DNA of 64,000 nucleotides from contig JAQSCZ010000094.1 in assembly GCA_029945665.1 (NCBI GenBank), positions 9,336 to 73,335 of the forward strand, read 5' to 3'. This stretch comes from a bacterium (GTDB lineage Bacteria; Bacteroidota; Bacteroidia; NS11-12g; UBA955). Positions 1 through 59,554 of this stretch are shown here, piece by piece. The position numbers and the translations under genes are program-made. Below the pieces are notes generated by a model, which worked only from the letters and a program-made list of their open reading frames with translations, was not told the origin of the DNA and ran no database searches. Numbering within the stretch: the first letter of the stretch is position 1; each line of letters begins with the position of its first letter.

Positions 1-3000
1 TTAGCTACCTCGGTTTGTCCTGCTAAATAATAAGCCGCTGCCAATCGCCATTGCGCACACAAAGCCAAGCCCTTTTCTTCACGCATTCTATTCATTGCAC
101 CCAACTCTGCACTACCCGCCAAAGCCAATACATATAAACGATACGCTTGTATGTGTTGATTGGATGCCTCGCCATGATCGTAATAATAGGTATTGTTATG
201 AATGTCCCAATTCTTTGCTCTTTCTGTTTGAAATTTCACCCATTTACTTTTCATATTAACAGGCAAACTATAACCTGATTTTTCTGCTTCTAACATAAAA
301 TGCCCCGCATAATTTGAGCCCCATTCACTTTCTTCTATTTCTCCAGGCCAGTATGAGAAACCGCCATTCGAAGTTTGAAATAATTGCAAACGTCTTAAAC
401 CTGCTCTTATATTTTTAGCAATTCTATCTTTCTGTGTCGTTTTTAAATCCATTAAATTAGAAACAAATAATTGAGGGAATACAGATGAAGTTGTTTGCTC
501 GATACAACCGTGCGGATAACTGATTAAATAATCCATGCGTTTATCTAATCCGATTGAAGGACGGTTAGACACTTCGACCACCATTTGATTGGTTCCAGAC
601 AAACCAGTATATTTAACTATATCGCTTATACTTTTACCTGCTTGTAATAAATATTCATTGGCAACAGTTACTTTTGGATTGGCAATTCTCACATCTAATT
701 CGATTGTTTGTGTCGCTTTTTCTTTACCACTAGTCGCTATTATTTTCACTCTTGCAACACCTGTTTTTTCAGCCACATTTAATTTAAAATTCAATACTTC
801 GTCTCCAGTCGTTTTGAAAAAACAATTTTGTTTATTACTACCATCAATTGTTAAAAATTCATTCACTTGTATTTCAACTTTCACATCTTTTACATGTTGT
901 TCCATTGCAAAAATATCGACCGGTAAATAAACAGATTCTTTTGGTCCCAATACCCGCGGCAGCGTAGCAATAACCATCAATGGTTTTTTTACGGCAACTG
1001 TTTTTTCTGCACTGCCATAAGCGCCTTCATTTTGTGCCACTATCATTACACGCACCGAGCCCGAATAATTAGGAAGTTCAATTGCATGGCTCTTTTGTTG
1101 ACCAGCACTTAAATAATAAGGACCAATAAATTTCACCATTGGTTTAAAACGGTTGGCCTTTACTCCCTTACCCGACAATCCATCGCCATCGCCTCCAATA
1201 CTCAACAGCTTATCGAGCTTGCCTGCATAAGCGCCTATCACCGCATCATACATGTCCCAAGTTTTTACACCCAATGCTTCCTTCGCATAAAATGTTTGCC
1301 AAGGTTCGGGTGTTTTAAAACGTGTTAAATCCAACAAACCTTCGTCAACAATTGCCAATGTATAGGCCATTGGTTGGCCTTGCAATTCTTTTACCACGAC
1401 ATTTACTTTGCGCTCAGGCTCCCAAACATTCGCCATTACCAACAGCGGCTTTAAATGCGTTTTAGGATCATCAATATTTAATGAAATAACTCCATACATG
1501 CGAATTGGTAAATCATTTTTTGTATTCGCATGCGGCTGCACCAAAGTAACATGCACGTATGCATTTGGACTCATATCTGCTGTGGCTTTAAATGTATATT
1601 TGGTTTCGCCAGCTTGTGTATTAATCCATGTTTTCTTAATTACTCTCGAACCCGTTTCAATGCTTACTAAGGCCTTGCCTGCCGCTGAAGATGGGAAAGA
1701 CAATTGTATATTTTCGCCGACCGTATATTGTGTTTTATCGCATGAGAAATTCAACATCGTAGAATTATCATGACCGGTTCTATTGCCACGGCTCCAAGAA
1801 GGCCAATCAACTACCACTACTTTTCCTGTTTGATGTCCGCCTTTTATATCTGAAACAGTTACCAAGTATCTACCATAATCCTCCTCGCCAACTCTAAATT
1901 TAAATTGGGCTTTTCCATTCAACGTTTTTATCATGCTATCTTTAATAACAATTGCACTTGAGCGAGAGACATAAGCAGCCATATCATCTTCATCATCTTC
2001 GTACCACCAACGCCATTGCAGTTTGTATATTTTTAGTTGTACTTGGTCGGCATTTACGGCTGCACCATCTGCATTCACTGTCGCTATTTCGAACAGGTGA
2101 CTACTTGAAGTACTCAATGGATTATTTTTTGTATCGGGTGTTCTTAATCCAACATAGGTTGTATAAGGTGAATAAGGTGCGCTAAATCGATCGACACTAA
2201 AATCACCACCTTCTTCGAATACGCGGGTTACAAAATTAGCTCTTAGCAATCCCGGAGCTGTTTTACCGGCCGAAAATCCTGAAACAATTCCAGCATTGCC
2301 CGCTTCGTTTAAATGCCCATCGTACAACATTATTTCATCGCCATAATAAGTGCGCAGCGGCGAATCAAATACAAAATTATGATAGCCATCGAACTTGGTT
2401 TCAGTTTGACTTAATGAAACATTCACCACTGCTCTTAAATTTTTAGCAATGGCTCCGTGCAACCAAAGCGCACGCAACTGTGCAATGGTATCCGATTTAT
2501 TTGCATTGATTTTTGCTTGTTTCAAATCAAAATATATTTTCAAACGATTGGGTTTTACCGTCTCTATTTTTACATTTTTTGTGAACGAACGGTTGCCAAT
2601 TTTTGCAACTGCCATGTAAGTTCCCGTTACCGCTTCGTCGGATGTTGCAGTTCTGAAATCATACAAACCATGCACATTCTCCGATTTGGCTTGCTGATAA
2701 ACAATTTTACCATTGGGATCTTGCAATTCAAATTTAACAGGATAGTTGGCAGGCAATTTTTTCTCTTTATCTTCTAAAATGAAATTCAAATACAAGGAAT
2801 CTCCAGGACGCCAAACACCGCGCTCGCCATAGATAAAACCTTTGATTCCTTTTTGAACCACTTCGCCTTCAACATCAAATTTACTCAATGAATTGGCATT
2901 GCCATCTAATAGTTTTAAATACCCTCTTTGTTTGCCCGAACTGGCCACCATTAAAAATGGTTTTTCTTTCAATTGCACATCCATCATACCTTCTGCATTG

Positions 3001-4724
3001 GTTAGCCCTTTTGCAATTATTTGTTTGGCATAATCAAAATAAGTCACCTCACAATTGCCAACAGGTTGTGCCGTTATCAAATTAGAAATAAATGCATGTG
3101 CGGTTTTATCCTCATCAAGTTTATAAATCATGCCCAAATCTGAAGCGAGAATATTTCTGCTCACCGCTTTTCCATCATAATAATTATCATCACATGTAGA
3201 ATAATTATCGGTATAATAATAACCCCAATTTTCATACCCTCCATCGAAACTGTAACGGTCCCAATTGTTTTCATTCCAATGGCTATTGAACCTATCAAGA
3301 ACTGAATTGGATGAACTTTCTGTTTCCTCTTCTTCAGTGGTTTCTTCCTCATCGCAATTGCACAAAGCATACGATTTATTAAATTTGATACTTACGCGAT
3401 ATATCGCTCCAGGATCAGGATTGATAAGGGTTCCCAAATCTATCACATGGGTATTCCATTGTTTTAAATTTTTTGTTTTATCTTCATTTAATTCAATCTT
3501 TTTCTCTGCTATCACTTTTCCCACTCTTGTCAATCCATCTTCTCCATCTAAATCATTAACTTGCAAAAACTGATGGATATTATTTTGAAATATTTTTATA
3601 ACTCTCACATCTACCGCTTTCAAACTAACTGCTCTGAATGGAAAAATGAGTCCCCCAGAATTCGGTAAAACAGAACCATTCCCCACTAATTTAACACGTG
3701 GTTTTAGTTCTTCGAAAATTAAACCTTCGCTGTAGGGTTGGTTCATGTGAAAACCTTTAACACTTTTAATGCCCGTGGAAACTTTTAATGTTTTTAGACC
3801 TTCCAATCGCAATCCAGGATATACTTTTACCAAATTACCTTCTATAGAGTAGGTCATATTATCTGCACCTTCGAGTGTTATAATTCCTCTTAAGTTTTGA
3901 TTGTAAGCAATGGGTTCTCCAAAATACAATTCAATGGTTTGATCGTCCTCATCAATTACCTTAGAATTAGTCACCGTAAAATCACCCATAGCGGGAATAT
4001 CAACGATTTGTTTTCCTGCAGAAATAGATTGTATGGGCTCACCATTCCAAGTTAGCTCAATGACTCCTTTATCTTTCCCTCTTTTTATGCTATCAATATA
4101 AAAATAAAAACCATTTTGACTGCTAGCATACACCCATCTTAGTTTTGCATTCTGTCCATTTAAAACAGCCTTCATTGTTTCTTTAATAGCAGCAGTATCT
4201 GCAAAATCGGAAGTTGTAATACGACCCGTTAATTTTTGCCATTCCGAGTTATTATCATCATAGGTTCTTAACCCATCAATTGCTACGGTCATGTTCTGAG
4301 GATAAGAAGCAAACTGAAAAACAAATTCTTCGAAATCTGATTTCACGCTTGCCACTTTTTCGAGTTGAAAAGTAGCGGTATAAAACTGATTAACTGGCAA
4401 TGGCTGATCGGGCACAAACTCAATAACTCTCTCGTTAATCCATACTGCTTTGCCTTTTATTCTAGGTTCAAATTCAAAAATACTTTCCAATAAATTTGAA
4501 TCAGGCAGTGTTCTTAAACCTTTTGAACTGCTAGGACAAGCCTCGGCCAACTCGATACGAATGGCATGCTTGCGACTAATATTCCCCGAAGTATAGCCAG
4601 AAACATATTTTCCATATTCAGGATTAACTGCAATGTATTGCGGCTTTTTATTGAGGCAAGAAGCAAGAAAAAATAAACTACCAAGCAGTATGAGTAGTAA
4701 AAGGGTTTTAAATGAAATTTGCAT
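1..4724 (-). CDS. alpha-2-macroglobulin family lipoprotein (partial; C-terminus runs off the left edge)
   Basis: Absent from the ORF track, apparently because it is edge-truncated. My translation from ATG at 4724 gives MQISFKTLLLLILLGSLFFLASC (signal peptide plus lipobox Cys). The track lists no minus-strand fragment in this frame between 1 and 4724, so the frame stays open. Thioester motif YPHGCIEQTTSS is read at about 481-520 (CIEQ = 495-506). The C-proximal stretch CAQWRLAAAYYLAGQ lies at the left edge. Confidence 0.85.
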   Translation of the reverse strand, partial: MQISFKTLLLLILLGSLFFLASCLNKKPQYIAVNPEYGKYVSGYTSGNISRKHAIRIELAEACPSSSKGLRTLPDSNLLESIFEFEPRIKGKAVWINERVIEFVPDQPLPVNQFYTATFQLEKVASVKSDFEEFVFQFASYPQNMTVAIDGLRTYDDNNSEWQKLTGRITTSDFADTAAIKETMKAVLNGQNAKLRWVYASSQNGFYFYIDSIKRGKDKGVIELTWNGEPIQSISAGKQIVDIPAMGDFTVTNSKVIDEDDQTIELYFGEPIAYNQNLRGIITLEGADNMTYSIEGNLVKVYPGLRLEGLKTLKVSTGIKSVKGFHMNQPYSEGLIFEELKPRVKLVGNGSVLPNSGGLIFPFRAVSLKAVDVRVIKIFQNNIHQFLQVNDLDGEDGLTRVGKVIAEKKIELNEDKTKNLKQWNTHVIDLGTLINPDPGAIYRVSIKFNKSYALCNCDEEETTEEEETESSSNSVLDRFNSHWNENNWDRYSFDGGYENWGYYYTDNYSTCDDNYYDGKAVSRNILASDLGMIYKLDEDKTAHAFISNLITAQPVGNCEVTYFDYAKQIIAKGLTNAEGMMDVQLKEKPFLMVASSGKQRGYLKLLDGNANSLSKFDVEGEVVQKGIKGFIYGERGVWRPGDSLYLNFILEDKEKKLPANYPVKFELQDPNGKIVYQQAKSENVHGLYDFRTATSDEAVTGTYMAVAKIGNRSFTKNVKIETVKPNRLKIYFDLKQAKINANKSDTIAQLRALWLHGAIAKNLRAVVNVSLSQTETKFDGYHNFVFDSPLRTYYGDEIMLYDGHLNEAGNAGIVSGFSAGKTAPGLLRANFVTRVFEEGGDFSVDRFSAPYSPYTTYVGLRTPDTKNNPLSTSSSHLFEIATVNADGAAVNADQVQLKIYKLQWRWWYEDDEDDMAAYVSRSSAIVIKDSMIKTLNGKAQFKFRVGEEDYGRYLVTVSDIKGGHQTGKVVVVDWPSWSRGNRTGHDNSTMLNFSCDKTQYTVGENIQLSFPSSAAGKALVSIETGSRVIKKTWINTQAGETKYTFKATADMSPNAYVHVTLVQPHANTKNDLPIRMYGVISLNIDDPKTHLKPLLVMANVWEPERKVNVVVKELQGQPMAYTLAIVDEGLLDLTRFKTPEPWQTFYAKEALGVKTWDMYDAVIGAYAGKLDKLLSIGGDGDGLSGKGVKANRFKPMVKFIGPYYLSAGQQKSHAIELPNYSGSVRVMIVAQNEGAYGSAEKTVAVKKPLMVIATLPRVLGPKESVYLPVDIFAMEQHVKDVKVEIQVNEFLTIDGSNKQNCFFKTTGDEVLNFKLNVAEKTGVARVKIIATSGKEKATQTIELDVRIANPKVTVANEYLLQAGKSISDIVKYTGLSGTNQMVVEVSNRPSIGLDKRMDYLISYPHGCIEQTTSSVFPQLFVSNLMDLKTTQKDRIAKNIRAGLRRLQLFQTSNGGFSYWPGEIEESEWGSNYAGHFMLEAEKSGYSLPVNMKSKWVKFQTERAKNWDIHNNTYYYDHGEASNQHIQAYRLYVLALAGSAELGAMNRMREEKGLALCAQWRLAAAYYLAGQTEVA

Positions 4725-11032: not shown

Positions 11033-12169
11033 ATGAAAAATTTACTAATCGCACTTGCTATCTGCTTTTCTAGCGCAATCCAAGCGCAAACTGTTATTGG
11101 ACCACCATTAGAAAACCCTGTACACAATACCATTCAGTTGGCTTTATTACTCGATGTAAGCAATAGCATGGATGGCCTTATCGACCAAGCAAAGGCTGAA
11201 TTATGGTCGATTGTTAACGAGGCTTCCAAAGCGTCTAAGAATGGACATGCCGCCCGACTAGAAATTGCCCTTTTTGAATATGGCCGTTCTACCCTTACCC
11301 TTCAAAGCGGCTATGTTAGAAAATTGGTAGATTATACCACCGACTTAGATACCATTTCAGAAGTATTATTTAGCTTAAAGACAGCTGGAGGTGATGAGTA
11401 TTGCGGCGAGGTGATTCAAAAAAGTTTAGCAGAATTAAAATGGCAAGATAATACTAACATGTACCGCGTTATTTTTATTGCTGGCAATGAACCATTTAAC
11501 CAAGGTAAATTAACCTACAATAGCGCATGTGCCAATGCATCCGAAAAACGCATTATCATTAACACCATCCATTGCGGCGATTCATTACAAGGTGTTAAAG
11601 AATTTTGGAAAGAAGGGGCTACAATTGGACAAGGCGAATATTTTTACATCAATCAAAATGCAACCAGTTTTATTCAAGTTGAAACACCTTATGACTCACT
11701 TATTCAACTATACAACGATAGTTTAAACACCACTTACATGGGCTACGGCAAAATGGGAACATACTATTGGAGCAATCAACTAAAACAAGATAAAAATGCA
11801 AAAACAATGAGCAAAGAAGTGGCCATTAAACGCGCTGAAACGAAATCGAAAAAATCAAGTTATTCGAATAAAAAATGGGATGTTGTAGATGCATCTACCG
11901 CTGATTCTACTTGGATTAAAAATACAAAAGATGAAGATTTACCCGAAGTAATGAAAGGCAAGACAATAGATGAGAAAAAAATAATTATTAAAGGCAATGA
12001 CACCCGAAGAATCTATTACTCTCAACAAATTGCCCTGTTGAATAAACAACGTCAAGCTTTTTTAGCAAATATAAAAAGAAACAAACCTGCTGAACGCACT
12101 TTGGGAACCGCTTTAATTAAGGCTATTAGAAGTCAAGCCATGGCTAAGGGTTTTGTATTTACCGACTAG
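11033..12169 (+). CDS. secreted von Willebrand factor type A (vWA) domain protein
   Basis: Signal peptide MKNLLIALAICFSSAIQAQ; MIDAS DxSxS in LLLDVSNSMDG; later TAGGDEY and IAGNEP blocks; Lys-rich C-terminal half. Confidence 0.8.
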   Translation: MKNLLIALAICFSSAIQAQTVIGPPLENPVHNTIQLALLLDVSNSMDGLIDQAKAELWSIVNEASKASKNGHAARLEIALFEYGRSTLTLQSGYVRKLVDYTTDLDTISEVLFSLKTAGGDEYCGEVIQKSLAELKWQDNTNMYRVIFIAGNEPFNQGKLTYNSACANASEKRIIINTIHCGDSLQGVKEFWKEGATIGQGEYFYINQNATSFIQVETPYDSLIQLYNDSLNTTYMGYGKMGTYYWSNQLKQDKNAKTMSKEVAIKRAETKSKKSSYSNKKWDVVDASTADSTWIKNTKDEDLPEVMKGKTIDEKKIIIKGNDTRRIYYSQQIALLNKQRQAFLANIKRNKPAERTLGTALIKAIRSQAMAKGFVFTD

Positions 12170-12173
12170 TTTC

Positions 12174-13034
12174 TTATCGAATACAAGCTCTTAAGCAGAG
12201 CAAACCCACCACCAATATCCTAAACAACATGACCACATTGCTATTGGCTCCAGCGCCAGGACTTAAATACGCTTTGTGATTATCTTTAATCAGTCTCTTA
12301 TTTTCCGGGTCACAATTCAACCACAATAAATTTTTGCTGATAGCCCTTACAAACGAAATATCCTTTTGCTGAATACGCACCGTGAAATTAATAACACTTA
12401 CTGAAATATTATTGCGACTTATAGAGAACTCCTCGGGCAATTCATTGAGAAACAAATAAAAATCGAGTCGTTTTAAAAATTTAACATGCTCATACTTGCC
12501 CTTCTTGTAAGTTTCATTGCTCACACTGTCAATTAAATCTTCAATATGATCTAAAGTTGAACCAACAATATCATACACATCTTCCACATTTTCCATACCC
12601 AAGTGATTAATGAACCTGATGATTTTGTGAGGTATTGTAAAATCAAGATTATTCAGGTGGTATTTCAAAGATGTTAATTCCGCTTCTAGTAAAATTGATT
12701 TTGCATGCGATGTTGTTGACGCATCGTCAAAAACAACCGATAGCACTTCAACAGGATTTGAGGCCTTTCTGGGATTTTCGCAGAAATTCAAAATATCTTT
12801 ATTTTTAAATAACTGCACATGCGTATCCAAATCCTCTAAATTTTTTAAGGTATCTATTTGATTAATAATTTCATCTTTGGTGTATTCTTGCTTATTAACT
12901 TTAATGGTTATCTGACGCGTTAAATTAAACTCAGCCAACAACTTTTTGCGCAAGCGTACCAATGCTTCTTGATCTAATAGTTTGACATCTACATCAAAAC
13001 TTTCGAGGATATGTAACGGTGATTGATAACTCAA
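12174..13034 (-). CDS. hypothetical tail-anchored protein (third gene of the Hsp70 operon)
   Basis: 286 aa. The N-terminal segment SPLHILESFDVDVKLLDQEALVRLRKKLLAEF resembles J-domain helices I-II, but there is no HPD anywhere. A single hydrophobic segment, VVMLFRILVVGLLCLRACIR, sits at the extreme C-terminus. The start is 14 nt after the Hsp70 stop. Confidence 0.6.
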   Translation of the reverse strand: MSYQSPLHILESFDVDVKLLDQEALVRLRKKLLAEFNLTRQITIKVNKQEYTKDEIINQIDTLKNLEDLDTHVQLFKNKDILNFCENPRKASNPVEVLSVVFDDASTTSHAKSILLEAELTSLKYHLNNLDFTIPHKIIRFINHLGMENVEDVYDIVGSTLDHIEDLIDSVSNETYKKGKYEHVKFLKRLDFYLFLNELPEEFSISRNNISVSVINFTVRIQQKDISFVRAISKNLLWLNCDPENKRLIKDNHKAYLSPGAGANSNVVMLFRILVVGLLCLRACIR

Positions 13035-13048
13035 TTTAATTATTTTTT

Positions 13049-15559
13049 TTATGACCCTAATCCAGTGCCTTTAATTTTTTCAATCTCAGTTTGTTCATCT
13101 TTAAGCTCAGCCCATATTTTTTTACAAATGGCCAAGAGTTCATTGTGATTGGTTTTTTCCATTGCCTTTTCGCCTTGGTCTAACAATTTTCTAGCTGCCT
13201 TCTCATTTGTAAATGCACTTGCAGGAAGACCCTGCAAATACACAAAATGATTGATTAACATAGATGGCACATTATATACCAATTTGCTATAAAACTTATC
13301 TAATTTCATGTAAAATCCATTCAAATTAAAATGATTCGTCGACTTCATGATTTCAGGATTGGTATCTAATAAAATTTTATATTCTTCTCGGATATTATCG
13401 GGAATATCATTGTGAAAATTCATCACTTGATCAATGTGCAACTTCATGTTTTGGATTTTTTCCTTCTTCTCATAAACAGGACTGTTGTTTAAGCCAACAT
13501 TGTAGTATTGAGTAGCTACTCTTCGTTTCTGCTCCTCTAATTGGTATTTGCGTTCATCCATATCTGCTTCTCTTAAAGTCGAAGCATCTTTTATTAAAGC
13601 ATTACAGACTTCTAAAATATCATTTAAAAAGGAAGCCTTTTCATAATCATCGCCTTCTAAAACTTTTTCAATTGAACGGTTAATTTCGTTGCGCAAAGTT
13701 CTAAGTTCCTCTCTCAATTTTGAAATACTGATGTACTTTTCCATTGGATTGAAAATATGATTGAAGCTTTGATTCGTAAAGGTTAAAACTGCATTCACAC
13801 TTATTTCTCTGCTCTCCGAAATTTCAAGCGTAATCTCTACATCAGAACCAAAAACTAAATCGCTTTCTAACATGCTTCCATTAATTTCAATTACGCCAAT
13901 TACCTTATTAGCACTTGGATGCACGGATTGGTTCCCTTCGAGTATATTGATAATTAAACTATCTGTTGAGCCTTTTTTAATGGTTCTCGACAATTCTTTG
14001 AACATCGTTTTCTTTAAAGGCAAGATGCTATTTCGCGCAAAAATAACCTCGCTAATCGTGGTGTTATTATTCATATCATCTACCTCTATGCAAATATCCT
14101 CTGGCAGGGTTTGTCCATACAAGGAAAACAGGCCTTGGGTAATTTCTATTTTCGCATTTGGAATGGCCAATTCAGTATTCAATTCATCATACAATTTAAT
14201 AGTAAAAATATTCACTGCATTGGCTTTTAACATCACAAACTCCCCAATTTTAATGGCTGCATTTTTTATCCCGGAATCATAGCCTCCATCAGCTCTTGCA
14301 ATTCTATAAGTACAATTGGATGGCAAGTTTTCAAATAATGCGGTAACATACTCCTCCATATCCTTGGTTGTTTTATTGTAAGCGACCTGCAATTGCACAT
14401 CGCTCTCTATGGCCGTTTCATTGGGCGTTTCGATTAACTTAGTAGGCAAAGTTTTAATTTTAGCCCCTGCGTAGTAGGCTGCTCCAACCGCTACTGCCGT
14501 CGATGGATCGGCCGAAAAATTAACAGGAATACCCGTGCTTTCCCCAATGCGTTTTCTCACGTATGGAATTATTGTGCTGCCCCCTATTAAAATAATATTT
14601 TTTATTTCATAGGGTGCAATGTTATTGCGATCAAATAATTTCTGTATGAAGGCTAAAGTGTAGTCAATTTTTGGTTCAATTAATTTCTCAAATTCCACAC
14701 GTGTTATTTCAAAATAAATATCCCTTGCAGCCTCTCCTTCTATTTCGAATGTAAATTCTATCTCAGCAGTGTCGTTAATACTAAGTTCCTTTTTTGCTTC
14801 TTCGGCTTTTAATAGCAGAATATAATAGAGCTTTTCATAAGGACCATTGCGCTGATTAATTAAACTATCGATATCACCCTTTCCTGTAATTTCCTTTAGG
14901 CGAGGCAATATAAGTTGGGTCACTATCATTTGATCTAAATCTACGCCACCCAAAAAATTATCACCTTCATGGTCAACCACGCGCATTTCATCATTATCGA
15001 TGGTGATTAAAGCAATATCAAAAGTACCTCCACCTAAATCGTACACAAGCCATTTACCAAGACTTCCAGCATCATTCATTTTCTCGTTAAAAAAGGCAAG
15101 TGAAGCCGCAATAGGTTCTTGTAACAATACAACTTCTTCGAATCCAGCTTCTCTACCAGCCTCTTTGGTGGCGTTGCATTGCACGGTATCAAAACTGGCC
15201 GGAATTGTTATAACAATGCTGCTAGGCTTTTGAACTTCGGGAATAAAATTTTTGAGTTCTTTTAATACCATTGCCGACAATCCTATTGGCGAATAGTAAG
15301 TCATTAAAGAGGGTATCAAATATTTTTCAGAGGTCCCCATTTTGCGTTTGAATGCAGAGAACACATTCAGCGGATCTTTCACAATATATTCTCTTGCTTT
15401 ATCGCCTACAATGATTCTTTCACCGCGAAAAGCCACACAACTTGGCAAGGTCTCTTTGTATCCAACAGGATTCTTAAAAACCTCTACTTTGCCTTTGCTA
15501 TATTTTGCAATTAATGAATTGGTAGTCCCCAAATCAATGCCGTAATCAATTGTTTCCAT
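13049..15559 (-). CDS. Hsp70-family ATPase, non-canonical long paralogue (836 aa)
   Basis: Actin-fold ATPase motifs GIDLGTTNS, VYDLGGGTFD and LIGGSTIIP. A beta-rich SBD-like middle region is followed by a helical C-terminal extension of roughly 230 aa. The canonical DVLLLDV-type linker was not seen. Confidence 0.9.
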   Translation of the reverse strand: METIDYGIDLGTTNSLIAKYSKGKVEVFKNPVGYKETLPSCVAFRGERIIVGDKAREYIVKDPLNVFSAFKRKMGTSEKYLIPSLMTYYSPIGLSAMVLKELKNFIPEVQKPSSIVITIPASFDTVQCNATKEAGREAGFEEVVLLQEPIAASLAFFNEKMNDAGSLGKWLVYDLGGGTFDIALITIDNDEMRVVDHEGDNFLGGVDLDQMIVTQLILPRLKEITGKGDIDSLINQRNGPYEKLYYILLLKAEEAKKELSINDTAEIEFTFEIEGEAARDIYFEITRVEFEKLIEPKIDYTLAFIQKLFDRNNIAPYEIKNIILIGGSTIIPYVRKRIGESTGIPVNFSADPSTAVAVGAAYYAGAKIKTLPTKLIETPNETAIESDVQLQVAYNKTTKDMEEYVTALFENLPSNCTYRIARADGGYDSGIKNAAIKIGEFVMLKANAVNIFTIKLYDELNTELAIPNAKIEITQGLFSLYGQTLPEDICIEVDDMNNNTTISEVIFARNSILPLKKTMFKELSRTIKKGSTDSLIINILEGNQSVHPSANKVIGVIEINGSMLESDLVFGSDVEITLEISESREISVNAVLTFTNQSFNHIFNPMEKYISISKLREELRTLRNEINRSIEKVLEGDDYEKASFLNDILEVCNALIKDASTLREADMDERKYQLEEQKRRVATQYYNVGLNNSPVYEKKEKIQNMKLHIDQVMNFHNDIPDNIREEYKILLDTNPEIMKSTNHFNLNGFYMKLDKFYSKLVYNVPSMLINHFVYLQGLPASAFTNEKAARKLLDQGEKAMEKTNHNELLAICKKIWAELKDEQTEIEKIKGTGLGS

Positions 15560-15560
15560 T

Positions 15561-15863
15561 TTATTTCTTTTTGGCCTCTACCATTACGATGCCTTGTTGA
15601 ACAATCACATTATTTTGATAAATAATTGGTTTTACTATTTGGGTAATGGTCATATCATGGCCCATTTCTCCCACAATATTGGCCATCACATCGGTGCGGG
15701 TATCGGTATATTTTTCGCCAATGGGCAATTGGTATACGAGGCCCATGCCTTCCCATACCGACTTTATTCTTTGTATAATTCTTTGAATACTTTCGTCTTT
15801 CTCCGCTCCCAACTTCAATTCAAGCAAAGCAAACTGGTTCATGATGGTGAGTGTTTCTTTCAT
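15561..15863 (-). CDS. GrpE-like nucleotide exchange factor, C-terminal domain only (100 aa)
   Basis: The pattern G-L-x-YQLPIGEKYTD...ITQIVKPIIYQNNVIVQQGIVMV matches the GrpE C-terminal beta-domain signature (G..fDP..H.A...V..GY...v.R.A.V.V). The long N-terminal helix is missing. The stop is 1 nt before the Hsp70 ATG. Confidence 0.55.
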   Translation of the reverse strand: MKETLTIMNQFALLELKLGAEKDESIQRIIQRIKSVWEGMGLVYQLPIGEKYTDTRTDVMANIVGEMGHDMTITQIVKPIIYQNNVIVQQGIVMVEAKKK

Positions 15864-15878
15864 GTATTTTTATCCTTT

Positions 15879-15886
15879 CAAACATA
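15879..15886 (-). promoter_or_regulatory. candidate -7 box TATGTTTG upstream of the GrpE-like/Hsp70 operon
   Basis: The reverse complement of CAAACATA matches TAnnTTTG and ends 15 nt before the ATG at 15863. No convincing -33 element was seen. Confidence 0.35.
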
Positions 15887-16029
15887 CAAATTGGTTTTAA
15901 AATAAAAAAGTATTAGCCTTATTAGATTTAAGTTTTTCAATAAAACAAAGATTCTAAATTACTTTTATCGGCTGTCATTGTTATAATTTACTTTAAAATG
16001 CTTTGTTTTGAAGTGGATTTCCCATTATT

Positions 16030-27917: not shown

Positions 27918-28325
27918 ATGTTAAGAAAAAATTATCCTGGTATTTACAAGTGGGCTTATGCAACGAGAAGAGAGAAGGAACTCATCTCTATTCAAGAGCA
28001 AAATCAGATACCCAAACAAACCAAAAGCAATTGGCGAAAACTATCGTCCGCAGAAATTTATTTATTAGAAGAGGATTTACAAATTAGGCAGCAACTGGAG
28101 GAACTGTATCAAAAACAAGATTTAAGTTGGTATAAAAAGAAACGCTTTTTCAACAAAATGGCCCGTTTAAATTTTCTAATGATAGATTTAATTGGCCACG
28201 ATAAATATTTAAAAATACTAGGGAAAACAAAAAAAGAATTTGTTTCTTTAATTGAGGAATACTCGGAATTTATACCCAAGAAAAAATTACTAATTTGTTT
28301 AAACTCAGTAATAATCGTTATATGA
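27918..28325 (+). CDS. IS orfA (135 aa, putative DNA-binding/accessory protein)
   Basis: Its position and frame relative to the DDE ORF. The sequence itself has no motif I recognise. Confidence 0.5.
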   Translation: MLRKNYPGIYKWAYATRREKELISIQEQNQIPKQTKSNWRKLSSAEIYLLEEDLQIRQQLEELYQKQDLSWYKKKRFFNKMARLNFLMIDLIGHDKYLKILGKTKKEFVSLIEEYSEFIPKKKLLICLNSVIIVI

Positions 28326-29209
28326 CATGGTATTCACAAGTAAATTTCGATTGCAAATCCAGTAAACTTAAATTGTGTGCGAAACAGCACCCGTATCAAA
28401 TTACAAGTAATGAATTTAAAACAATAGAATCATGCTTGCTCGACCCTTATTATGAAACATGGCCAAAGAGCGCCATTCACAGCAATCTTTTAAAGCTTGG
28501 TAAAATAACCATTTCTCGTTCTACATTTTATAAGCACGCACAGCAAATAATGCCTTCAAAAGAGCGAAAAAAAAGTAGAAAAAAGGGATATCGTCCACTG
28601 CGTGCCTCCTATGTAAATAAATATTGGCACATGGACATTAGTTATTTTAATACCGACAATAATCAACGCAGTTTTATTTATGCCATCATAGACAATTATT
28701 CAAGAAAAATAATTGCTTGGAAATGTGAACAGGAAATAAGTAAAATCCATATTGGTTCTGTTATCAATGAGGCATTAAAACTGACATCTTTGACACAACT
28801 TAATTTGGTCACAGATGGTGGTAAAGAAAATGTCAATCAATACATTCAGAATTTAATTTTGCAATATTATGAACAAAGCGGAATTGATATAGAACATAAA
28901 ATTGCCTTAAAAACCATCAGGCAATCAAATTCTATGATTGAGCGTTTTTTTAGAATTATGAAATCAAACTATTTATATTTCAATGTACCATACTCTCATC
29001 AGGAATTATGTTTAGCACTTGAAAAAATAATTCATGAATACAACTTTTTACGACCCCATTATGCACTCAACCACTTAACACCTGCAGAATGTTTTGATGG
29101 CAAACAATTTCCTGATATTTCAAAAAGAATTAAACGCGCTAGAAAACAAAGATTTAAAAAGAATAAAAATTGTAACTGCACTTTATGCATTTGCGATGAA
29201 CCTGATTGA
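28295..29209 (+). CDS. DDE (rve/integrase-core) transposase orfB
   Basis: YWHMDISYF (first D), LVTDGGKEN (second D), SNSMIERFF (E) and the C-terminal RPHYALNHLTPAE motif typical of the retroviral-integrase superfamily. Confidence 0.8.
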   Translation: MFKLSNNRYMTWYSQVNFDCKSSKLKLCAKQHPYQITSNEFKTIESCLLDPYYETWPKSAIHSNLLKLGKITISRSTFYKHAQQIMPSKERKKSRKKGYRPLRASYVNKYWHMDISYFNTDNNQRSFIYAIIDNYSRKIIAWKCEQEISKIHIGSVINEALKLTSLTQLNLVTDGGKENVNQYIQNLILQYYEQSGIDIEHKIALKTIRQSNSMIERFFRIMKSNYLYFNVPYSHQELCLALEKIIHEYNFLRPHYALNHLTPAECFDGKQFPDISKRIKRARKQRFKKNKNCNCTLCICDEPD

Positions 29210-57991: not shown

Positions 57992-59554
57992 TTACTCTTT
58001 AATTATTTTTTGAACAGATACCGCTTCCCCATTCGTAGTTTTTATAACAAGCGTATACATTGAAGCTTTGTAAAATTGTAAATCAATTTGCGGGTTAGAA
58101 TCATTTACTTTTAAATTTTGAACTAATAGACGACCATATAAATCATAAACATCTATCAAATAATCCTTGCCATGACTTATACTAACATTAAATTTACCAT
58201 TCGATGGATTAGGATAAATACTAAAATTAAATTTATTATGAGATATGACGTTTGTTGGCCGCCTAATATATTTAGAAGTATCGTGGTCCAAAATAAGAAC
58301 TTTATAGTCTTTTAATTCAATACTGTTTGGAATATTTGAACATAATGGAACATTAGGATAACTGTTCGAATTAGTTACCTCATTTAAATCCTTATCATAT
58401 TTCATTAGTACAACACTATAATTACCATTGTCATTAAAATAGGAATACAAAACGATACTACTATCGCTATCCCAAAACCCATGCAAGTAACCTAAATTAA
58501 CACCTATTTGCTTTTTTAATAATTTATTTAAGTTTAAGTCATAAATATATCCATAAATAGTGTGGAATTCGGGATCATTATTTTGACCTGTAAACATATA
58601 AATTTTTCCATTAGAAGAAACTAACTGGCAGCTGGGAAATTCAGTATAACTCGTATCGGTAAAAAACCTTGACTCCTTGTCAATTTGATTGTTAGAATTA
58701 TCGACAATAGCGACTGTTCCGGCCCCTAGTACATTCGGATTTTTTGAGATATCTTTAGAACGATCGTAGATTAAAATAACACTTTTATTTTCATTTTCCA
58801 ACTTACCAATAGATGTAGACATACTAAAATTATTACTATCTATATATCTATAATAATTAAATTTAAATCTAGTAATATCTGTATTACAACTCCCAAAAAA
58901 ACCTTTGAGATAAACATCATTAACATTTGTGTTTGGTGGATGAGCTCCATTACTTCCTGCAAACAAAAGTTCATTATTAACTATTTGAAAAGTTTCAAGC
59001 TCTTCTTCAATATAATGAACATTTTTAATTGTATCATTTTCTAAATTTACCAAGGCAGTTCCTCCACCCCATTTATTCCGAGAAACATAATAAATTAGGG
59101 TTTTCCTCGATAAATCATAATTTGCAAAACCAAACACTCTGCTGAAAGAGTCTCTCGTATTTTTATGTTCAATTTTTGTAAAATTAATCGGCTTGAAACA
59201 TGAATCTAACTCAAAAAAACAACCTTCTTCAAGTAAAAAGTTAGTGCCAAGACTGCCAGAAACAAGGAGTTTACCATTTAAAACACTTAAACCATAAATA
59301 TAAAAATCAGGATAGTCTCTGCTTTTGATATTAATCGTTTTTATTATTTGAGCGTTTTTATTTACAATGGCTATATTATAACTATTGAAATTTTGATAAT
59401 ATGCTATAAGATAATGGTCGTTCCATTCAACAACACCCCTATCCAAAATATTTTCAAAAGTACTTACATTTCCAATTTTTAGATTCCAATTCTGCCCCCT
59501 TGCGAGGGGGCAAAACCAGAATATTAAAAATGAATATAAAAATGATTTTAACAT
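57992..59554 (-). CDS. T9SS C-terminal-sorting-domain cargo protein (520 aa)
   Basis: Signal peptide, an Asn/Tyr-rich body and a C-terminal FSIYPNPSNGKFNVSI...YDLYGRLL...MYTLVIKT type A Por tail. The region looks very AT-rich by eye. Confidence 0.8.
   Translation of the reverse strand: MLKSFLYSFLIFWFCPLARGQNWNLKIGNVSTFENILDRGVVEWNDHYLIAYYQNFNSYNIAIVNKNAQIIKTINIKSRDYPDFYIYGLSVLNGKLLVSGSLGTNFLLEEGCFFELDSCFKPINFTKIEHKNTRDSFSRVFGFANYDLSRKTLIYYVSRNKWGGGTALVNLENDTIKNVHYIEEELETFQIVNNELLFAGSNGAHPPNTNVNDVYLKGFFGSCNTDITRFKFNYYRYIDSNNFSMSTSIGKLENENKSVILIYDRSKDISKNPNVLGAGTVAIVDNSNNQIDKESRFFTDTSYTEFPSCQLVSSNGKIYMFTGQNNDPEFHTIYGYIYDLNLNKLLKKQIGVNLGYLHGFWDSDSSIVLYSYFNDNGNYSVVLMKYDKDLNEVTNSNSYPNVPLCSNIPNSIELKDYKVLILDHDTSKYIRRPTNVISHNKFNFSIYPNPSNGKFNVSISHGKDYLIDVYDLYGRLLVQNLKVNDSNPQIDLQFYKASMYTLVIKTTNGEAVSVQKIIKE

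Follow-up and report, generated by a model that had tools for sequence, protein, structure and literature searches.

Three adjacent genes at positions 12174–15863 of a 64,000-nt stretch of Bacteroidota DNA (hereafter, the window) encode an Hsp70 between two small proteins. An earlier note, made from the sequence, proposed a dedicated, membrane-tethered module consisting of a mini-GrpE, an Hsp70 paralogue and an HPD-less partner.

Organization of the locus

All three genes lie on the minus strand: gene 1 (15561–15863; 100 aa, ATG start), gene 2, encoding the Hsp70 (13049–15559; 836 aa, ATG start), and gene 3 (12174–13034; 286 aa, TTG start). Direct reading gives gaps of 1 nt between genes 1 and 2 and 14 nt between genes 2 and 3, confirming the tight spacing described earlier. 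Homologues of gene 3 open with the same M-x-Y-x-S-P sequence as gene 3 itself, which supports its TTG start. Housekeeping genes (radA, a glmU-like gene, tpiA and secA) flank the module, and its position is unchanged in related genomes. The GC contents of genes 1, 2 and 3 (0.389, 0.360 and 0.341) do not deviate significantly from that of the window (0.369 ± 0.023, 42 long ORFs), and the AT-richness previously ascribed to the module is therefore not borne out.

The intergenic region upstream of gene 1 (15864–16029, minus strand) is the presumed location of the promoter. It contains TATGTTTG at 15879–15886, which fits the Bacteroidetes −7 consensus, TAnnTTTG. This consensus occurs 101 times in the window versus 100.6 expected by chance, so the match is statistically uninformative.

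Recurrence of the trio in Bacteroidota

For the synteny counts, 91 related loci were collapsed at 95% identity into 74 non-redundant groups. A gene-1 homologue of ~100 aa lies directly upstream of the Hsp70 gene, on the same strand, in 58 of the 60 non-redundant loci with room for it, and 39 of 43 loci have a gene-3 homologue next to the Hsp70 gene, inside the flanks. The trio thus recurs across Bacteroidota at dozens of independent loci, an arrangement that is more than chance and that upholds the co-occurrence of both small genes with orthologues of gene 2. Since gene 3 is absent beside the Hsp70 gene in 4 of the 43 loci and often lies on the opposite strand (convergent in 22 of the 39 loci having it), its coupling is looser than that of gene 1; the idea of one operon stands generally for genes 1 and 2, but not for gene 3. 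Six of the 39 loci carry two or three gene-3 paralogues in tandem beside a single Hsp70 gene.

No other neighbour family recurs beyond small sets of loci, and the flanking genes vary among Spirosoma, Chitinophaga and other genomes. At two loci (L037 and L038) a gene pair is inserted between genes 1 and 2; from its N-terminal sequence alone, the first gene of the pair reads as a putative C5 DNA methyltransferase. The Bacteroidota relatives listed show 44–53% conservation over the full length. Gene 3 has diverged more rapidly than any neighbouring gene and is the fastest-evolving of the three, with 47% identity in a syntenic relative versus 73% for gene 2.

Gene 1 is predicted to adopt a truncated GrpE fold

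Sequence comparison reveals no similarity of gene 1 to GrpE, and neither Pfam nor NCBIfam gives a GrpE match. Its AF2 model, built from an 84-sequence alignment, has a pLDDT of 92.6 and a pTM of 0.81 and contains two helices (residues 2–18 and 24–39) and six strands. The top 12 Foldseek matches of the model in the PDB are exclusively GrpE (structures 4ani, 9bls, 9a81, 8gb3, 3a6m, 1dkg and 9blt), with probabilities of 0.98–1.00 for eleven of them and 0.82 for the twelfth, TMq values of 0.44–0.61 over ~76–112 aligned columns, and modest E-values of 1.6e-3 and weaker. Matches after these twelve have probabilities of at most 0.05. Because all twelve are GrpE, the mini-GrpE idea is supported.

Specifically, residues 2–39 of the model form a helical hairpin, the counterpart of GrpE's half of the four-helix bundle, and residues 40–100 form the β-domain; the N-terminal disordered region and the long paired helix of GrpE are absent, in agreement with the earlier view of gene 1 as the C-terminal β-domain of GrpE without its long helix. 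Almost all of the 196 gene-1 clusters at 50% identity are ~100 aa. The predicted fold and the gene context together support homology with GrpE, and gene 1 is a predicted nucleotide exchange factor.

Gene 2 combines a conserved ATPase with divergent downstream regions

The nucleotide-binding domain (NBD) of gene 2 (residues 1–370; 14450–15559, minus strand) is defined by matches to Pfam HSP70, which covers residues 7–365 only (E = 2.9e-67; profile positions 3–373 of 599), and to DnaK NBDs in the PDB (8e-52). The actin-fold ATPase motifs DLGTTNS, DLGGGTFD and IGGSTIIP noted earlier are present in the translation. In addition, none of 18 family members departs from D8, T11, K70, E171, D194, T199 and D201 (DnaK numbering), and the NBD looks catalytically intact. 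With every catalytic residue invariant, gene 2 would be expected to cycle nucleotide and therefore to have use for an exchange factor. Gene 2 is in no DnaK, HscA or HscC clade. Its NBD is 31–34% identical to those of E. coli DnaK, HscA and HscC, and it scores 220 bits against the DnaK equivalog and 210 bits against the HscA equivalog, ~3-fold short of the cut-offs of 648–822 bits. These values agree with a dedicated, non-housekeeping module.

Downstream of the NBD, no VLLLD-type linker is found in gene 2 or 17 relatives aligned with DnaK, HscA and HscC, corroborating the reported lack of a canonical interdomain linker. Family alignments instead define residues 371–487 (14099–14449, minus strand), in which a variable spacer at the linker position is followed by a conserved, family-specific domain of ~90 aa (YNKTT..EEY..YRI.R.DGGYDSG..); hhalign shows no relation of this region to SBDβ, and it has no Pfam or PDB match. 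Weak but consistent matches, in the same register by three methods, suggest that residues 488–612 (13724–14098, minus strand) form a divergent SBDβ-like domain. With the family profile, hhalign places residues 506–598 on DnaK 411–496 (P = 0.026) and gives an SBDβ match to a DnaK/HscA/HscC profile with E = 0.0034 over 97 columns; the excised region gives the best value, E = 0.0014, in a single comparison. BLASTP finds the same register with DnaK 411–538 (E = 0.22) and, in HscC, a match to an overlapping part of SBDβ at residues 358–453 (E = 1.6), and HMMER finds no SBDβ match in residues 488–612.

The C-terminal extension inferred before is present: ~225 residues (613–836; 13052–13723, minus strand), conserved in family alignments, follow the SBDβ-like region. 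HMMER matches it to helical proteins, and only weakly, and the extension is probably helical and would comprise a lid and extra helices. Gene 2 ends in a conserved K-I-K-G-T-G-L-G-S (nt 13052–13078); as terminal motif, main-clade members have GTG(L/I)G and those of a second clade (K/R)IGF(Y).

The J-domain/allosteric surface of the NBD is altered as well. Across 18 members (DnaK numbering), R167 is replaced by V/L, R151 by S/C, D148 by T, Y145 by S, N170 by Q, T173 by I and E217 by R/K. R167 is the partner of Asp35 of the HPD motif, and the roles of R167, the L391 linker residue and D148 have been described (PMC8215388); all three residues are lost across the gene 2 family. Judged from these alignments, gene 2 has lost the J-domain-receiving surface. 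The earlier proposal of a partner that cannot use the HPD mechanism is upheld, and the result goes beyond it, in that the Hsp70 residues receiving the HPD are lost as well.

Gene 3 is a helical, membrane-anchored protein

The AF2 model of gene 3 (pLDDT 83.6, pTM 0.74) is nearly all helical, with one β-hairpin at residues 43–52. The model and homologues define a putatively cytoplasmic all-α domain (residues 1–240; 12315–13034, minus strand), which opens with an invariant, exposed motif, M-x-Y-x-S-P-L (also given as L/F), ahead of the first helix, and includes a basic helix, RLRKKLLAEF. The family has no Pfam model, and Foldseek against the PDB lists only weak matches to helical-repeat proteins (best E = 0.22).

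The resemblance of the N-terminus to J-domain helices I–II, suggested earlier, is not supported: Pfam DnaJ does not match gene 3 even at E ≤ 10, hhalign gives no J-domain signal, and no J-domain, Pam16 or Tim44 is among the 50 Foldseek matches listed. The absence of an HPD, by contrast, extends from gene 3 to the first 120 residues of all 82 homologues in the surveyed loci. Furthermore, neither the ORFs of the window nor those of 90 related loci with flanks of up to 5–6 kb yielded a J-domain protein, whether by phmmer with E. coli DnaJ (E ≤ 1e-3) or with an HMM of four E. coli J-domains (E ≤ 1).

The single C-terminal transmembrane (TM) helix described before is real, spanning residues 263–283 (12186–12248, minus strand; Kyte-Doolittle hydropathy 1.9–2.35), and the protein ends in ..LRA-C-IR. 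Together with adjacency to the Hsp70 gene, this substantiates a syntenic, membrane-anchored partner. A TM segment occupies the equivalent relative position in 60 of ~69 distinct family members, 38 of these 60 having a Cys at or just beyond its outer end. About half of the family is not tail-anchored and carries a variable tail of 50–270 residues after the TM segment. In one homologue (L011) this tail is a TonB_C domain (PF03544, E = 5e-18), which suggests an N-in/C-out topology for gene 3.

Proposed mechanism and alternative explanations

We consider it probable that the trio constitutes a self-contained, membrane-associated, specialised Hsp70 system that works without a J-domain protein, presumably acting on its clients at the cytoplasmic face of the inner membrane. 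Gene 2 would be an active Hsp70 ATPase with a divergent substrate-binding domain, an extra domain at the linker position and a long C-terminal extension closing in a conserved peptide. Gene 1 would be its private exchange factor, a GrpE pared down to its ATPase-contacting portion, the four-helix-bundle half and the β-domain; it probably dimerises through its two helices and would pry ADP from the gene 2 NBD. The conserved helical domain of gene 3 may bind the Hsp70, either through the C-terminal peptide of gene 2 or with the invariant SPL motif at its own N-terminus presented to the substrate-binding domain. Gene 3 would thereby hold the chaperone at the membrane or guide it there, in the role that the tail-anchored DjlB/DjlC play for E. 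coli HscC.

Gene 3 might instead be a dedicated client, the Hsp70 and mini-GrpE keeping gene-3 proteins and their paralogues soluble for membrane insertion or regulating the cytoplasmic domain. Tail-anchored proteins expose their sole membrane segment after translation ends, and the TM segment of gene 3 lies at or near its C-terminus. Moreover, the exposed M-x-Y-x-S-P-L/F motif recalls a specific Hsp70 recognition peptide, two or three tandem paralogues share a single Hsp70 in six loci, gene 3 diverges fastest (47% versus 73% identity for gene 2), and DnaK is listed as one of the factors that guide DjlC to the membrane (PMC8215388). However, the 50–270 residues after the TM segment in about half of the family make co-translational insertion possible, and gene 3's own function, and the upkeep of a whole Hsp70 system, would be left unexplained. 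We regard client status as rather unlikely; adaptor and client roles are not mutually exclusive.

A role for gene 2 as an Hsp110-like helper of the housekeeping DnaK, acting through NBD–NBD contacts with J-domain coupling given up, is improbable. Its 836 aa fall in the Hsp110 size range, and its extra domain beside SBDβ and long C-terminal extension are typical of Hsp110 architecture. Gene 2 also lacks the Hsp70 linker motif and J-domain coupling features, as does Hsp110 according to PMC13580251, which proposes such a role for NBD-containing DnaK derivatives of complex bacteria. An exchange factor would need none of its own, yet a GrpE-fold gene adjoins gene 2 in 58 of 60 loci; gene 2 has its own membrane partner and all its catalytic residues, and no dnaK lies near it in any locus. 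Least credible is a conflict or anti-phage module in which the Hsp70 ATPase controls a membrane effector. Some conflict systems predicted in Actinobacteria and Firmicutes do include Hsp70 and GrpE genes (PMC7159879), gene 3 outpaces all its neighbours in evolution and has variable tails, and the first gene of the L037/L038 pair between genes 1 and 2 may be a methyltransferase. But PADLOC matches neither the three proteins nor a vWA neighbour, leaving the earlier suggestion of a defence role without support; PHROG matches neither gene 1 nor gene 3, no toxin or nuclease domain is recognisable, base composition is ordinary, the flanks are housekeeping genes, the module keeps its position in related genomes, and 44–53% full-length conservation among the Bacteroidota relatives listed is what a cellular function passed on vertically would typically show.

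Comparison with known systems

GAP1-N2 GTPase-centred conflict systems of Actinobacteria and Firmicutes likewise bring Hsp70 and GrpE genes together in a non-housekeeping neighbourhood (PMC7159879); the GTPase, DnaJ fusion and FNIII repeats around which they are built are all missing from the triad loci. Bacterial NBD-containing DnaK derivatives and Hsp110 resemble gene 2 in being large, lacking the linker motif and having lost or modified DnaJ-binding features; the accessible part of PMC13580251 calls the function of these derivatives in bacteria still open, and surveys Myxococcus, Anaeromyxobacter and E. coli without mention of the present Bacteroidota family, of a mini-GrpE or of a partner in the membrane.

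HscA–HscB–IscU, a dedicated Hsp70 with a single client family and a short invariant motif, is the model for gene 3 as a client. HscA acts on the LPPVK motif of IscU; as points of difference, it uses a J-protein (HscB, HPD present), keeps R167 and the linker, and has neither a GrpE partner nor a membrane link. The mitochondrial import motor (mtHsp70, Mge1, Pam18/Pam16 and Tim44) resembles the proposed triad system in its membrane-tethered Hsp70 and GrpE-type exchange factor, and one of its membrane partners, Pam16, is J-like and lacks an HPD; that motor still depends on Pam18, which has a true J-domain, and on a canonical Hsp70 whose linker is intact. As in DnaK–DnaJ–GrpE, a catalytically complete Hsp70 ATPase is encoded beside a GrpE-fold gene. 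In contrast to that set, the triad has no J-protein and no VLLLD linker, gene 2 carries an extra domain and ~225 additional C-terminal residues and falls ~3-fold below the DnaK and HscA equivalog thresholds, and the predicted exchange factor is half-size, without GrpE's disordered N-terminus and long helix pair (PMC8215388).

Unlike gene 2, HscC preserves R167, R151 and D148, and the segment at its linker position, VILTD, still contains the Asp; the NBDs are 31% identical and the remainder is unalignable beyond the weak SBDβ stretch. HscC is not known to use GrpE, whereas the triad has a private GrpE-fold gene. A genuine J-domain, carrying HPE in place of HPD, is present in DjlB and DjlC but not in gene 3, and DjlC stimulates HscC. 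HscC works with DjlB/DjlC at the plasma membrane, and their C-terminal anchoring, mentioned in the earlier note, is confirmed by the literature (PMC8215388) and by their tails as read from the sequences. In both systems a specialised, non-housekeeping Hsp70 is encoded beside its partners, more than one partner paralogue may adjoin a single Hsp70, the partners run from an interaction module at the N-terminus through a middle domain to a membrane anchor at the C-terminus, and function is presumed at the cytoplasmic face of the inner membrane (PMC8215388).

Organization of the triad locus

The triad occupies positions 12174–15863 of the minus strand and comprises three tightly packed ORFs: gene 1 (15561–15863, 100 aa), gene 2 (13049–15559, 836 aa) and gene 3 (12174–13034, 286 aa). 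Direct reading of the sequence gives gaps of 1 nt between genes 1 and 2 and 14 nt between genes 2 and 3. Gene 3 begins with TTG, a start codon that is credible because homologues share the N-terminal motif M-x-Y-x-S-P. The triad is surrounded by ordinary chromosomal genes, including those for a RadA-type ATPase, a glmU-like transferase, triosephosphate isomerase and SecA. Assignment of the DNA to Bacteroidota follows from a protein that bears a type IX secretion sorting domain. An earlier note, made from the sequence alone, had described the triad as AT-rich relative to its neighbours, but the GC contents of genes 1, 2 and 3 (0.389, 0.360 and 0.341, respectively) are not odd when set against the 42 long ORFs of the window (0.369 ± 0.023).

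A TAnnTTTG motif located 5′ of gene 1 was considered as a promoter signal and discarded, its frequency in the window being at chance level. Convergent with gene 3 and 4 nt from it lies a plus-strand gene (11033–12169) whose 378-aa product starts with a signal-peptide-like segment and weakly matches vWA and DUF1194. This vWA gene was rejected as a conserved partner; it is found only in the closest relatives (L002–L004), is absent from the relative L005 and from distant loci, and is therefore placed outside the module. Elsewhere in the window, a low-GC ORF (0.313; 28295–29209, plus strand) carries integrase core domains (rve and rve_3) and is probably an insertion-sequence transposase, while the lowest-GC long ORF (0.287; 57992–59554, minus strand) encodes 520 aa, in which the only Pfam match is a C-terminal sorting domain of type IX secretion. 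A 1574-aa ORF (3–4724, minus strand) encodes a bacterial alpha-2-macroglobulin and is possibly incomplete, because it lies at the extreme edge of the window.

Recurrence and synteny of the triad

Full-length relatives of gene 2 are common (~830 aa, 44–53% identity), and their named carriers include Spirosoma, Chitinophaga, Flavisolibacter and Flaviaesturariibacter. We collected 90 related loci, of which 5 came from genomes, 5 from look-ups of distant homologues and 80 from a metagenome scan. Scanning genome contigs with the single gene-2 protein returned only 5 close relatives; the wider set came from the metagenome scan with the family alignment, the query being a profile that covered the C-terminal half of gene 2, which is specific to the family. 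The ORFs of the 90 loci were searched with iterated HMMs of all three proteins, and the loci were collapsed to 74 groups at 95% identity.

Among the 74 groups, 58 of the 60 loci with room for it have a gene-1 homologue immediately upstream of the Hsp70 on the same strand, and 39 of the 43 loci with room have a gene-3 homologue within the flanks. Gene 3 is convergent downstream (22 loci), same-strand downstream (12 loci) or upstream (5 loci), and is present in 2–3 copies at 6 of the 39. All-against-all clustering of the related loci revealed no further recurrent neighbour, and the flanking genes vary between distant genomes. Genes 1 and 2 are therefore a near-obligate pair, which gene 3 often joins, though in a looser association. 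These counts agree with the dedicated module proposed in the earlier note. Its proposal of a single operon stands for genes 1 and 2, which share a strand, but not for gene 3 as a rule, given the 22 convergent arrangements.

The triad diverges faster than its flanks in syntenic relatives. Specifically, BLASTP comparison of the window with L005 (L005:5692–9377) gives identities of 97% for RadA, 92% for the GltP-like gene and 90% for TpiA, against 73% for gene 2, 72% for gene 1 and 47% for gene 3; dS is saturated. The divergence could be due to fast evolution or to in-place replacement of the cassette.

The related loci also contain several variants. In one lineage, a two-gene insert (L037:1080–3792 and L038:667–3379) separates genes 1 and 2 by 2.9 kb and encodes proteins of 444 aa and 466 aa, the former with an N-terminus (..ELFAGVGGF..) that by eye resembles a C5 DNA methyltransferase. 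In a second clade (L064, L068, L072, L073, L081, L085, L086 and L089), the gene order is 3-1-2 and the gene-1 ORFs are longer as called (118–162 aa, with start codons as predicted). Most gene-3 homologues of this clade have no clear transmembrane segment (TM) within ~110 residues past the conserved domain; in L064 and L089, a hydrophobic segment occurs farther along, near residue 380. A 1168-aa ORF (L061:3–3509) is an apparent fusion of genes 2 and 3. We rejected it as a natural (Rosetta-stone) fusion, since its gene-3 part begins only at profile position 146, and it is therefore probably a deletion or an assembly join. Similarly, the ‘long’ 971-aa gene 2 of locus L076 was dismissed as an over-extended ORF in GC-rich DNA.

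Gene 2 is an Hsp70 with altered coupling residues

The Pfam HSP70 model (PF00012) matches gene 2 over residues 7–365 only (E = 2.9e-67), and DnaK nucleotide-binding domain (NBD) structures in the PDB match it at 8e-52. The NBD is 31–34% identical to those of E. coli DnaK, HscA and HscC, and the similarity is confined to this domain. Because the identity to each of the three is so low, gene 2 belongs, as judged from sequence, to no DnaK, HscA or HscC clade. In addition, its scores on the DnaK and HscA equivalog models (220 and 210 bits, respectively) fall well under the cut-offs of 648–822, in accordance with the earlier assignment of gene 2 as a non-housekeeping Hsp70.

We aligned 18 gene-2 family members with E. 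coli DnaK, HscA and HscC. The seven catalytic residues D8, T11, K70, E171, D194, T199 and D201 (DnaK numbering) are invariant in the 18 members, and the ATPase motifs are intact, as first read. Seven other residues, all invariant in E. coli DnaK, HscA and HscC, are changed in the family: R167 to V or L, R151 to S or C, D148 to T, Y145 to S, N170 to Q, T173 to I and E217 to R or K. The canonical interdomain linker VLLLD, which had not been found in gene 2 on first inspection, is missing from all 18 aligned members, where a variable spacer takes its place. In the J-domain–DnaK interaction, Asp35 of the J-domain tripeptide HPD bonds to R167 and His33 to the backbone at L391 in the linker; D148 belongs to the route by which the signal reaches the catalytic centre (PMC8215388). 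In light of these roles, the replaced residues and the lost linker argue that the J-domain-receiving surface is dismantled across the gene-2 family.

Past the NBD, gene 2 consists of the variable spacer, a conserved ~90-aa domain, residues 488–612 and ~225 more residues. HMMER searches of Pfam and the PDB and hhalign comparison with the DnaK substrate-binding beta-domain (SBDβ) detected no relatives of the ~90-aa domain, and hhalign comparison likewise led us to reject residues 396–487 as a duplicated SBDβ. Residues 488–612 align with DnaK SBDβ by hhalign at E = 0.026, 0.0034 and 0.0014 in one register, with weak BLASTP segments; a HMMER search of the PDB and Pfam with the profile of the C-terminal half did not find the DnaK SBD. 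At the extreme C-terminus, the main clade ends in GTG(L/I)G and the second clade in (K/R)IGF(Y), and this conservation suggests a docking peptide.

Gene 1 is predicted to be a half-size GrpE

Gene 1 has no match at E ≤ 1 in Pfam or NCBIfam, GrpE (PF01025) included, and none of 35 family members matches the GrpE profile at E ≤ 10. Similarly, phmmer against the PDB and hhalign against E. coli GrpE returned nothing. An exhaustive HMMER profile search defined a family of 196 clusters at 50% identity, nearly all ~100 aa, among which no group of GrpE-length relatives was apparent when judged by lengths rather than match by match.

With every sequence route negative, the link to GrpE came from structure prediction alone. 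The AlphaFold2 model, built from an 84-sequence alignment of representative-search matches, has a pLDDT of 92.6 and contains helices 2–18 and 24–39 followed by a six-stranded beta-domain. In a Foldseek search of the PDB with this model, the top 12 matches are all GrpE chains, from 7 entries and 5 organisms (Geobacillus kaustophilus, human mitochondria, Mycobacterium tuberculosis, Thermus thermophilus and E. coli); a GrpE–DnaK integrative model is also among them. Eleven of the chains have Foldseek probabilities of 0.98–1.00 and the twelfth 0.82, and all lower matches are at ≤ 0.05; the query TM-scores are 0.44–0.61, with most alignments spanning ~100 columns. Since the top matches are GrpE only, the model has a GrpE fold, in support of the mini-GrpE first proposed for this gene. 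According to the model, gene 1 is a GrpE of which only two parts remain, the four-helix-bundle half and the beta-domain. GrpE functions as a dimer and speeds nucleotide release from its cognate Hsp70. On the predicted fold, and in the context of its position directly upstream of gene 2, gene 1 is a predicted nucleotide exchange factor for gene 2.

Gene 3 represents a membrane-anchored family

Gene 3 has no match in Pfam, NCBIfam, PADLOC or PHROG. Members of its family share a ~240-aa N-terminal domain and, ~25–40 residues further on, a single hydrophobic segment (residues 263–283 of 286 in gene 3), past which they end within a few residues, as in the window, or run for up to ~270 residues more. 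In a 446-aa homologue (L011:6349–7689), the tail past the TM matches the TonB C-terminal domain (PF03544; E = 5e-18). Such a domain normally works in the periplasm, in contact with outer-membrane transporters, and its presence in this tail therefore orients gene 3 with the N-terminus inside and the tail outside. The hydrophobic segment agrees with the single C-terminal TM originally attributed to gene 3. In the L011 protein, the cytoplasmic domain associated with the Hsp70 is thus connected to a module on the periplasmic side. Among the other 44 long homologues, the tails contain no recognisable domain except for a marginal UNC-93 match (E = 5.7e-4).

The earlier note had likened the N-terminus of gene 3 to helices I–II of a J-domain, and this likeness was not supported by our searches. 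The DnaJ profile (PF00226) gives no match to gene 3 at E ≤ 1, to any of 15 members at E ≤ 10 or to any of 45 at E ≤ 0.001, and three attempts to align gene 3 with E. coli J-domains by hhalign yielded nothing. The AlphaFold2 model (pLDDT 83.6) is nearly all helical with one hairpin (43–52), which follows helices 6–13 and 22–38 and precedes helices 53–64 and 69–77. Foldseek returned only weak matches to helical-repeat proteins, with no J-domain among the 50 matches listed. HPD is absent from gene 3 by direct reading, as already noted from the sequence, and none of the 82 homologues has it within its first 120 residues. The N-terminal order of helix, basic helix, loop and helix is compatible with a degenerate, loop-replaced J-domain, but none of these searches backs one. 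We assign gene 3 to a new family; the only annotation given to it and to its relatives is ‘hypothetical protein’, and the four close relatives of gene 1 are unnamed.

In 38 of 60 gene-3 family members, including those of loci L024, L026, L030, L046 and L050, a Cys is found where the TM ends on the outer side or just past that point. Its context is often lipobox-like (..VAT|CNN.., ..AFT|CNS.., ..IAA|CSS..; ..LRA|CIR in the window, 12174–12200). Long forms have an Asn/Ser-rich stretch after the Cys, and short forms have just 0–5 residues. The motif might mark a site of lipoprotein-type modification that is internal, lying behind a cytoplasmic domain of 270 aa.

A private Hsp70 cycle and its alternatives

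Neither phmmer with E. coli DnaJ (E ≤ 1e-3) nor an HMM of four E. coli J-domains (E ≤ 1) detected a J-domain protein in the ORFs of the window or of the 90 related loci. The best-supported reading, which we regard as reasonably probable, is that the triad runs a private Hsp70 cycle. Gene 2 would hydrolyse ATP, gene 1 would exchange its nucleotide, and gene 3 would tether the chaperone at the cytoplasmic face of the inner membrane, much as the tail-anchored DjlB and DjlC are thought to tether HscC at the membrane (PMC8215388). Two contacts are conceivable: the conserved peptide at the gene-2 C-terminus may dock on the gene-3 helical domain, and the invariant SPL motif at the gene-3 N-terminus may enter the gene-2 SBD. 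The same N-terminal motif, together with the tandem paralogues and the tail anchor, would fit gene 3 as a dedicated client, a role that we rate as unlikely. A bolder possibility, in our estimate distinctly improbable, is an Hsp70 without any J-domain in which the membrane-spanning gene-3 family replaces the J-protein and couples ATP hydrolysis to variable periplasmic modules, one of them a TonB C-terminal domain. If true, the gene-3-linked Hsp70 would be an ATP-driven device that passes force or signals across the envelope or processes proteins there.

An Hsp110-like helper role has been proposed for bacterial DnaK derivatives (PMC13580251). For gene 2 to be such a helper of DnaK is very unlikely, however, given its predicted dedicated exchange factor and intact catalysis. 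The defence or conflict role raised in the earlier note is less credible still: genes 1–3 and the vWA neighbour have no PADLOC match at E ≤ 1, no effector domain was found, the composition of the triad is ordinary, and its syntenic position is stable.

Significance and comparison with known systems

Hsp70s are generally held to need J-domain proteins that couple client binding to ATP hydrolysis. In the present family of widespread bacterial Hsp70s, the ATPase site and a private, predicted exchange factor are retained, yet three features are jointly missing: the J-domain, the arginine that receives HPD, and the linker between the domains. If active, the triad would represent another way of driving the Hsp70 cycle, and gene 1 would define the smallest working GrpE. 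We found no published description of the triad family in the literature searched. Since neither gene 1 nor gene 3 is covered by a Pfam or NCBIfam model, and gene 3 with its relatives is annotated as hypothetical, the triad offers a provisional functional context for a few hundred Bacteroidota hypothetical-protein clusters, and cultivable carriers such as Spirosoma and Chitinophaga make the system open to experiment.

The triad is still an Hsp70 system, set apart by three things: a GrpE of half size, the loss of J-coupling features throughout the family, and membrane partners that form a new family. GrpE has a disordered N-terminus and an unusually long alpha-helical dimerisation domain (PMC8215388). 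Gene 1 is predicted to share the C-terminal fold of GrpE, with two four-helix-bundle helices and a compact beta-domain, but has neither the disordered N-terminus nor the long helix, whose absence had already been noted from the sequence; the protein is 100 aa in all, its model opens with a short helical hairpin, and the family is ~100 aa throughout. The J-domains of E. coli DjlB (L095:3416–4843) and DjlC (L095:6213–7664) read HPE, not HPD (..SFHPETDPQG.. and ..LCHPETDPQG..), and a hydrophobic tail ends both proteins. Gene 3 resembles DjlB and DjlC in having a single C-terminal membrane anchor and the bulk of the protein in the cytoplasm.
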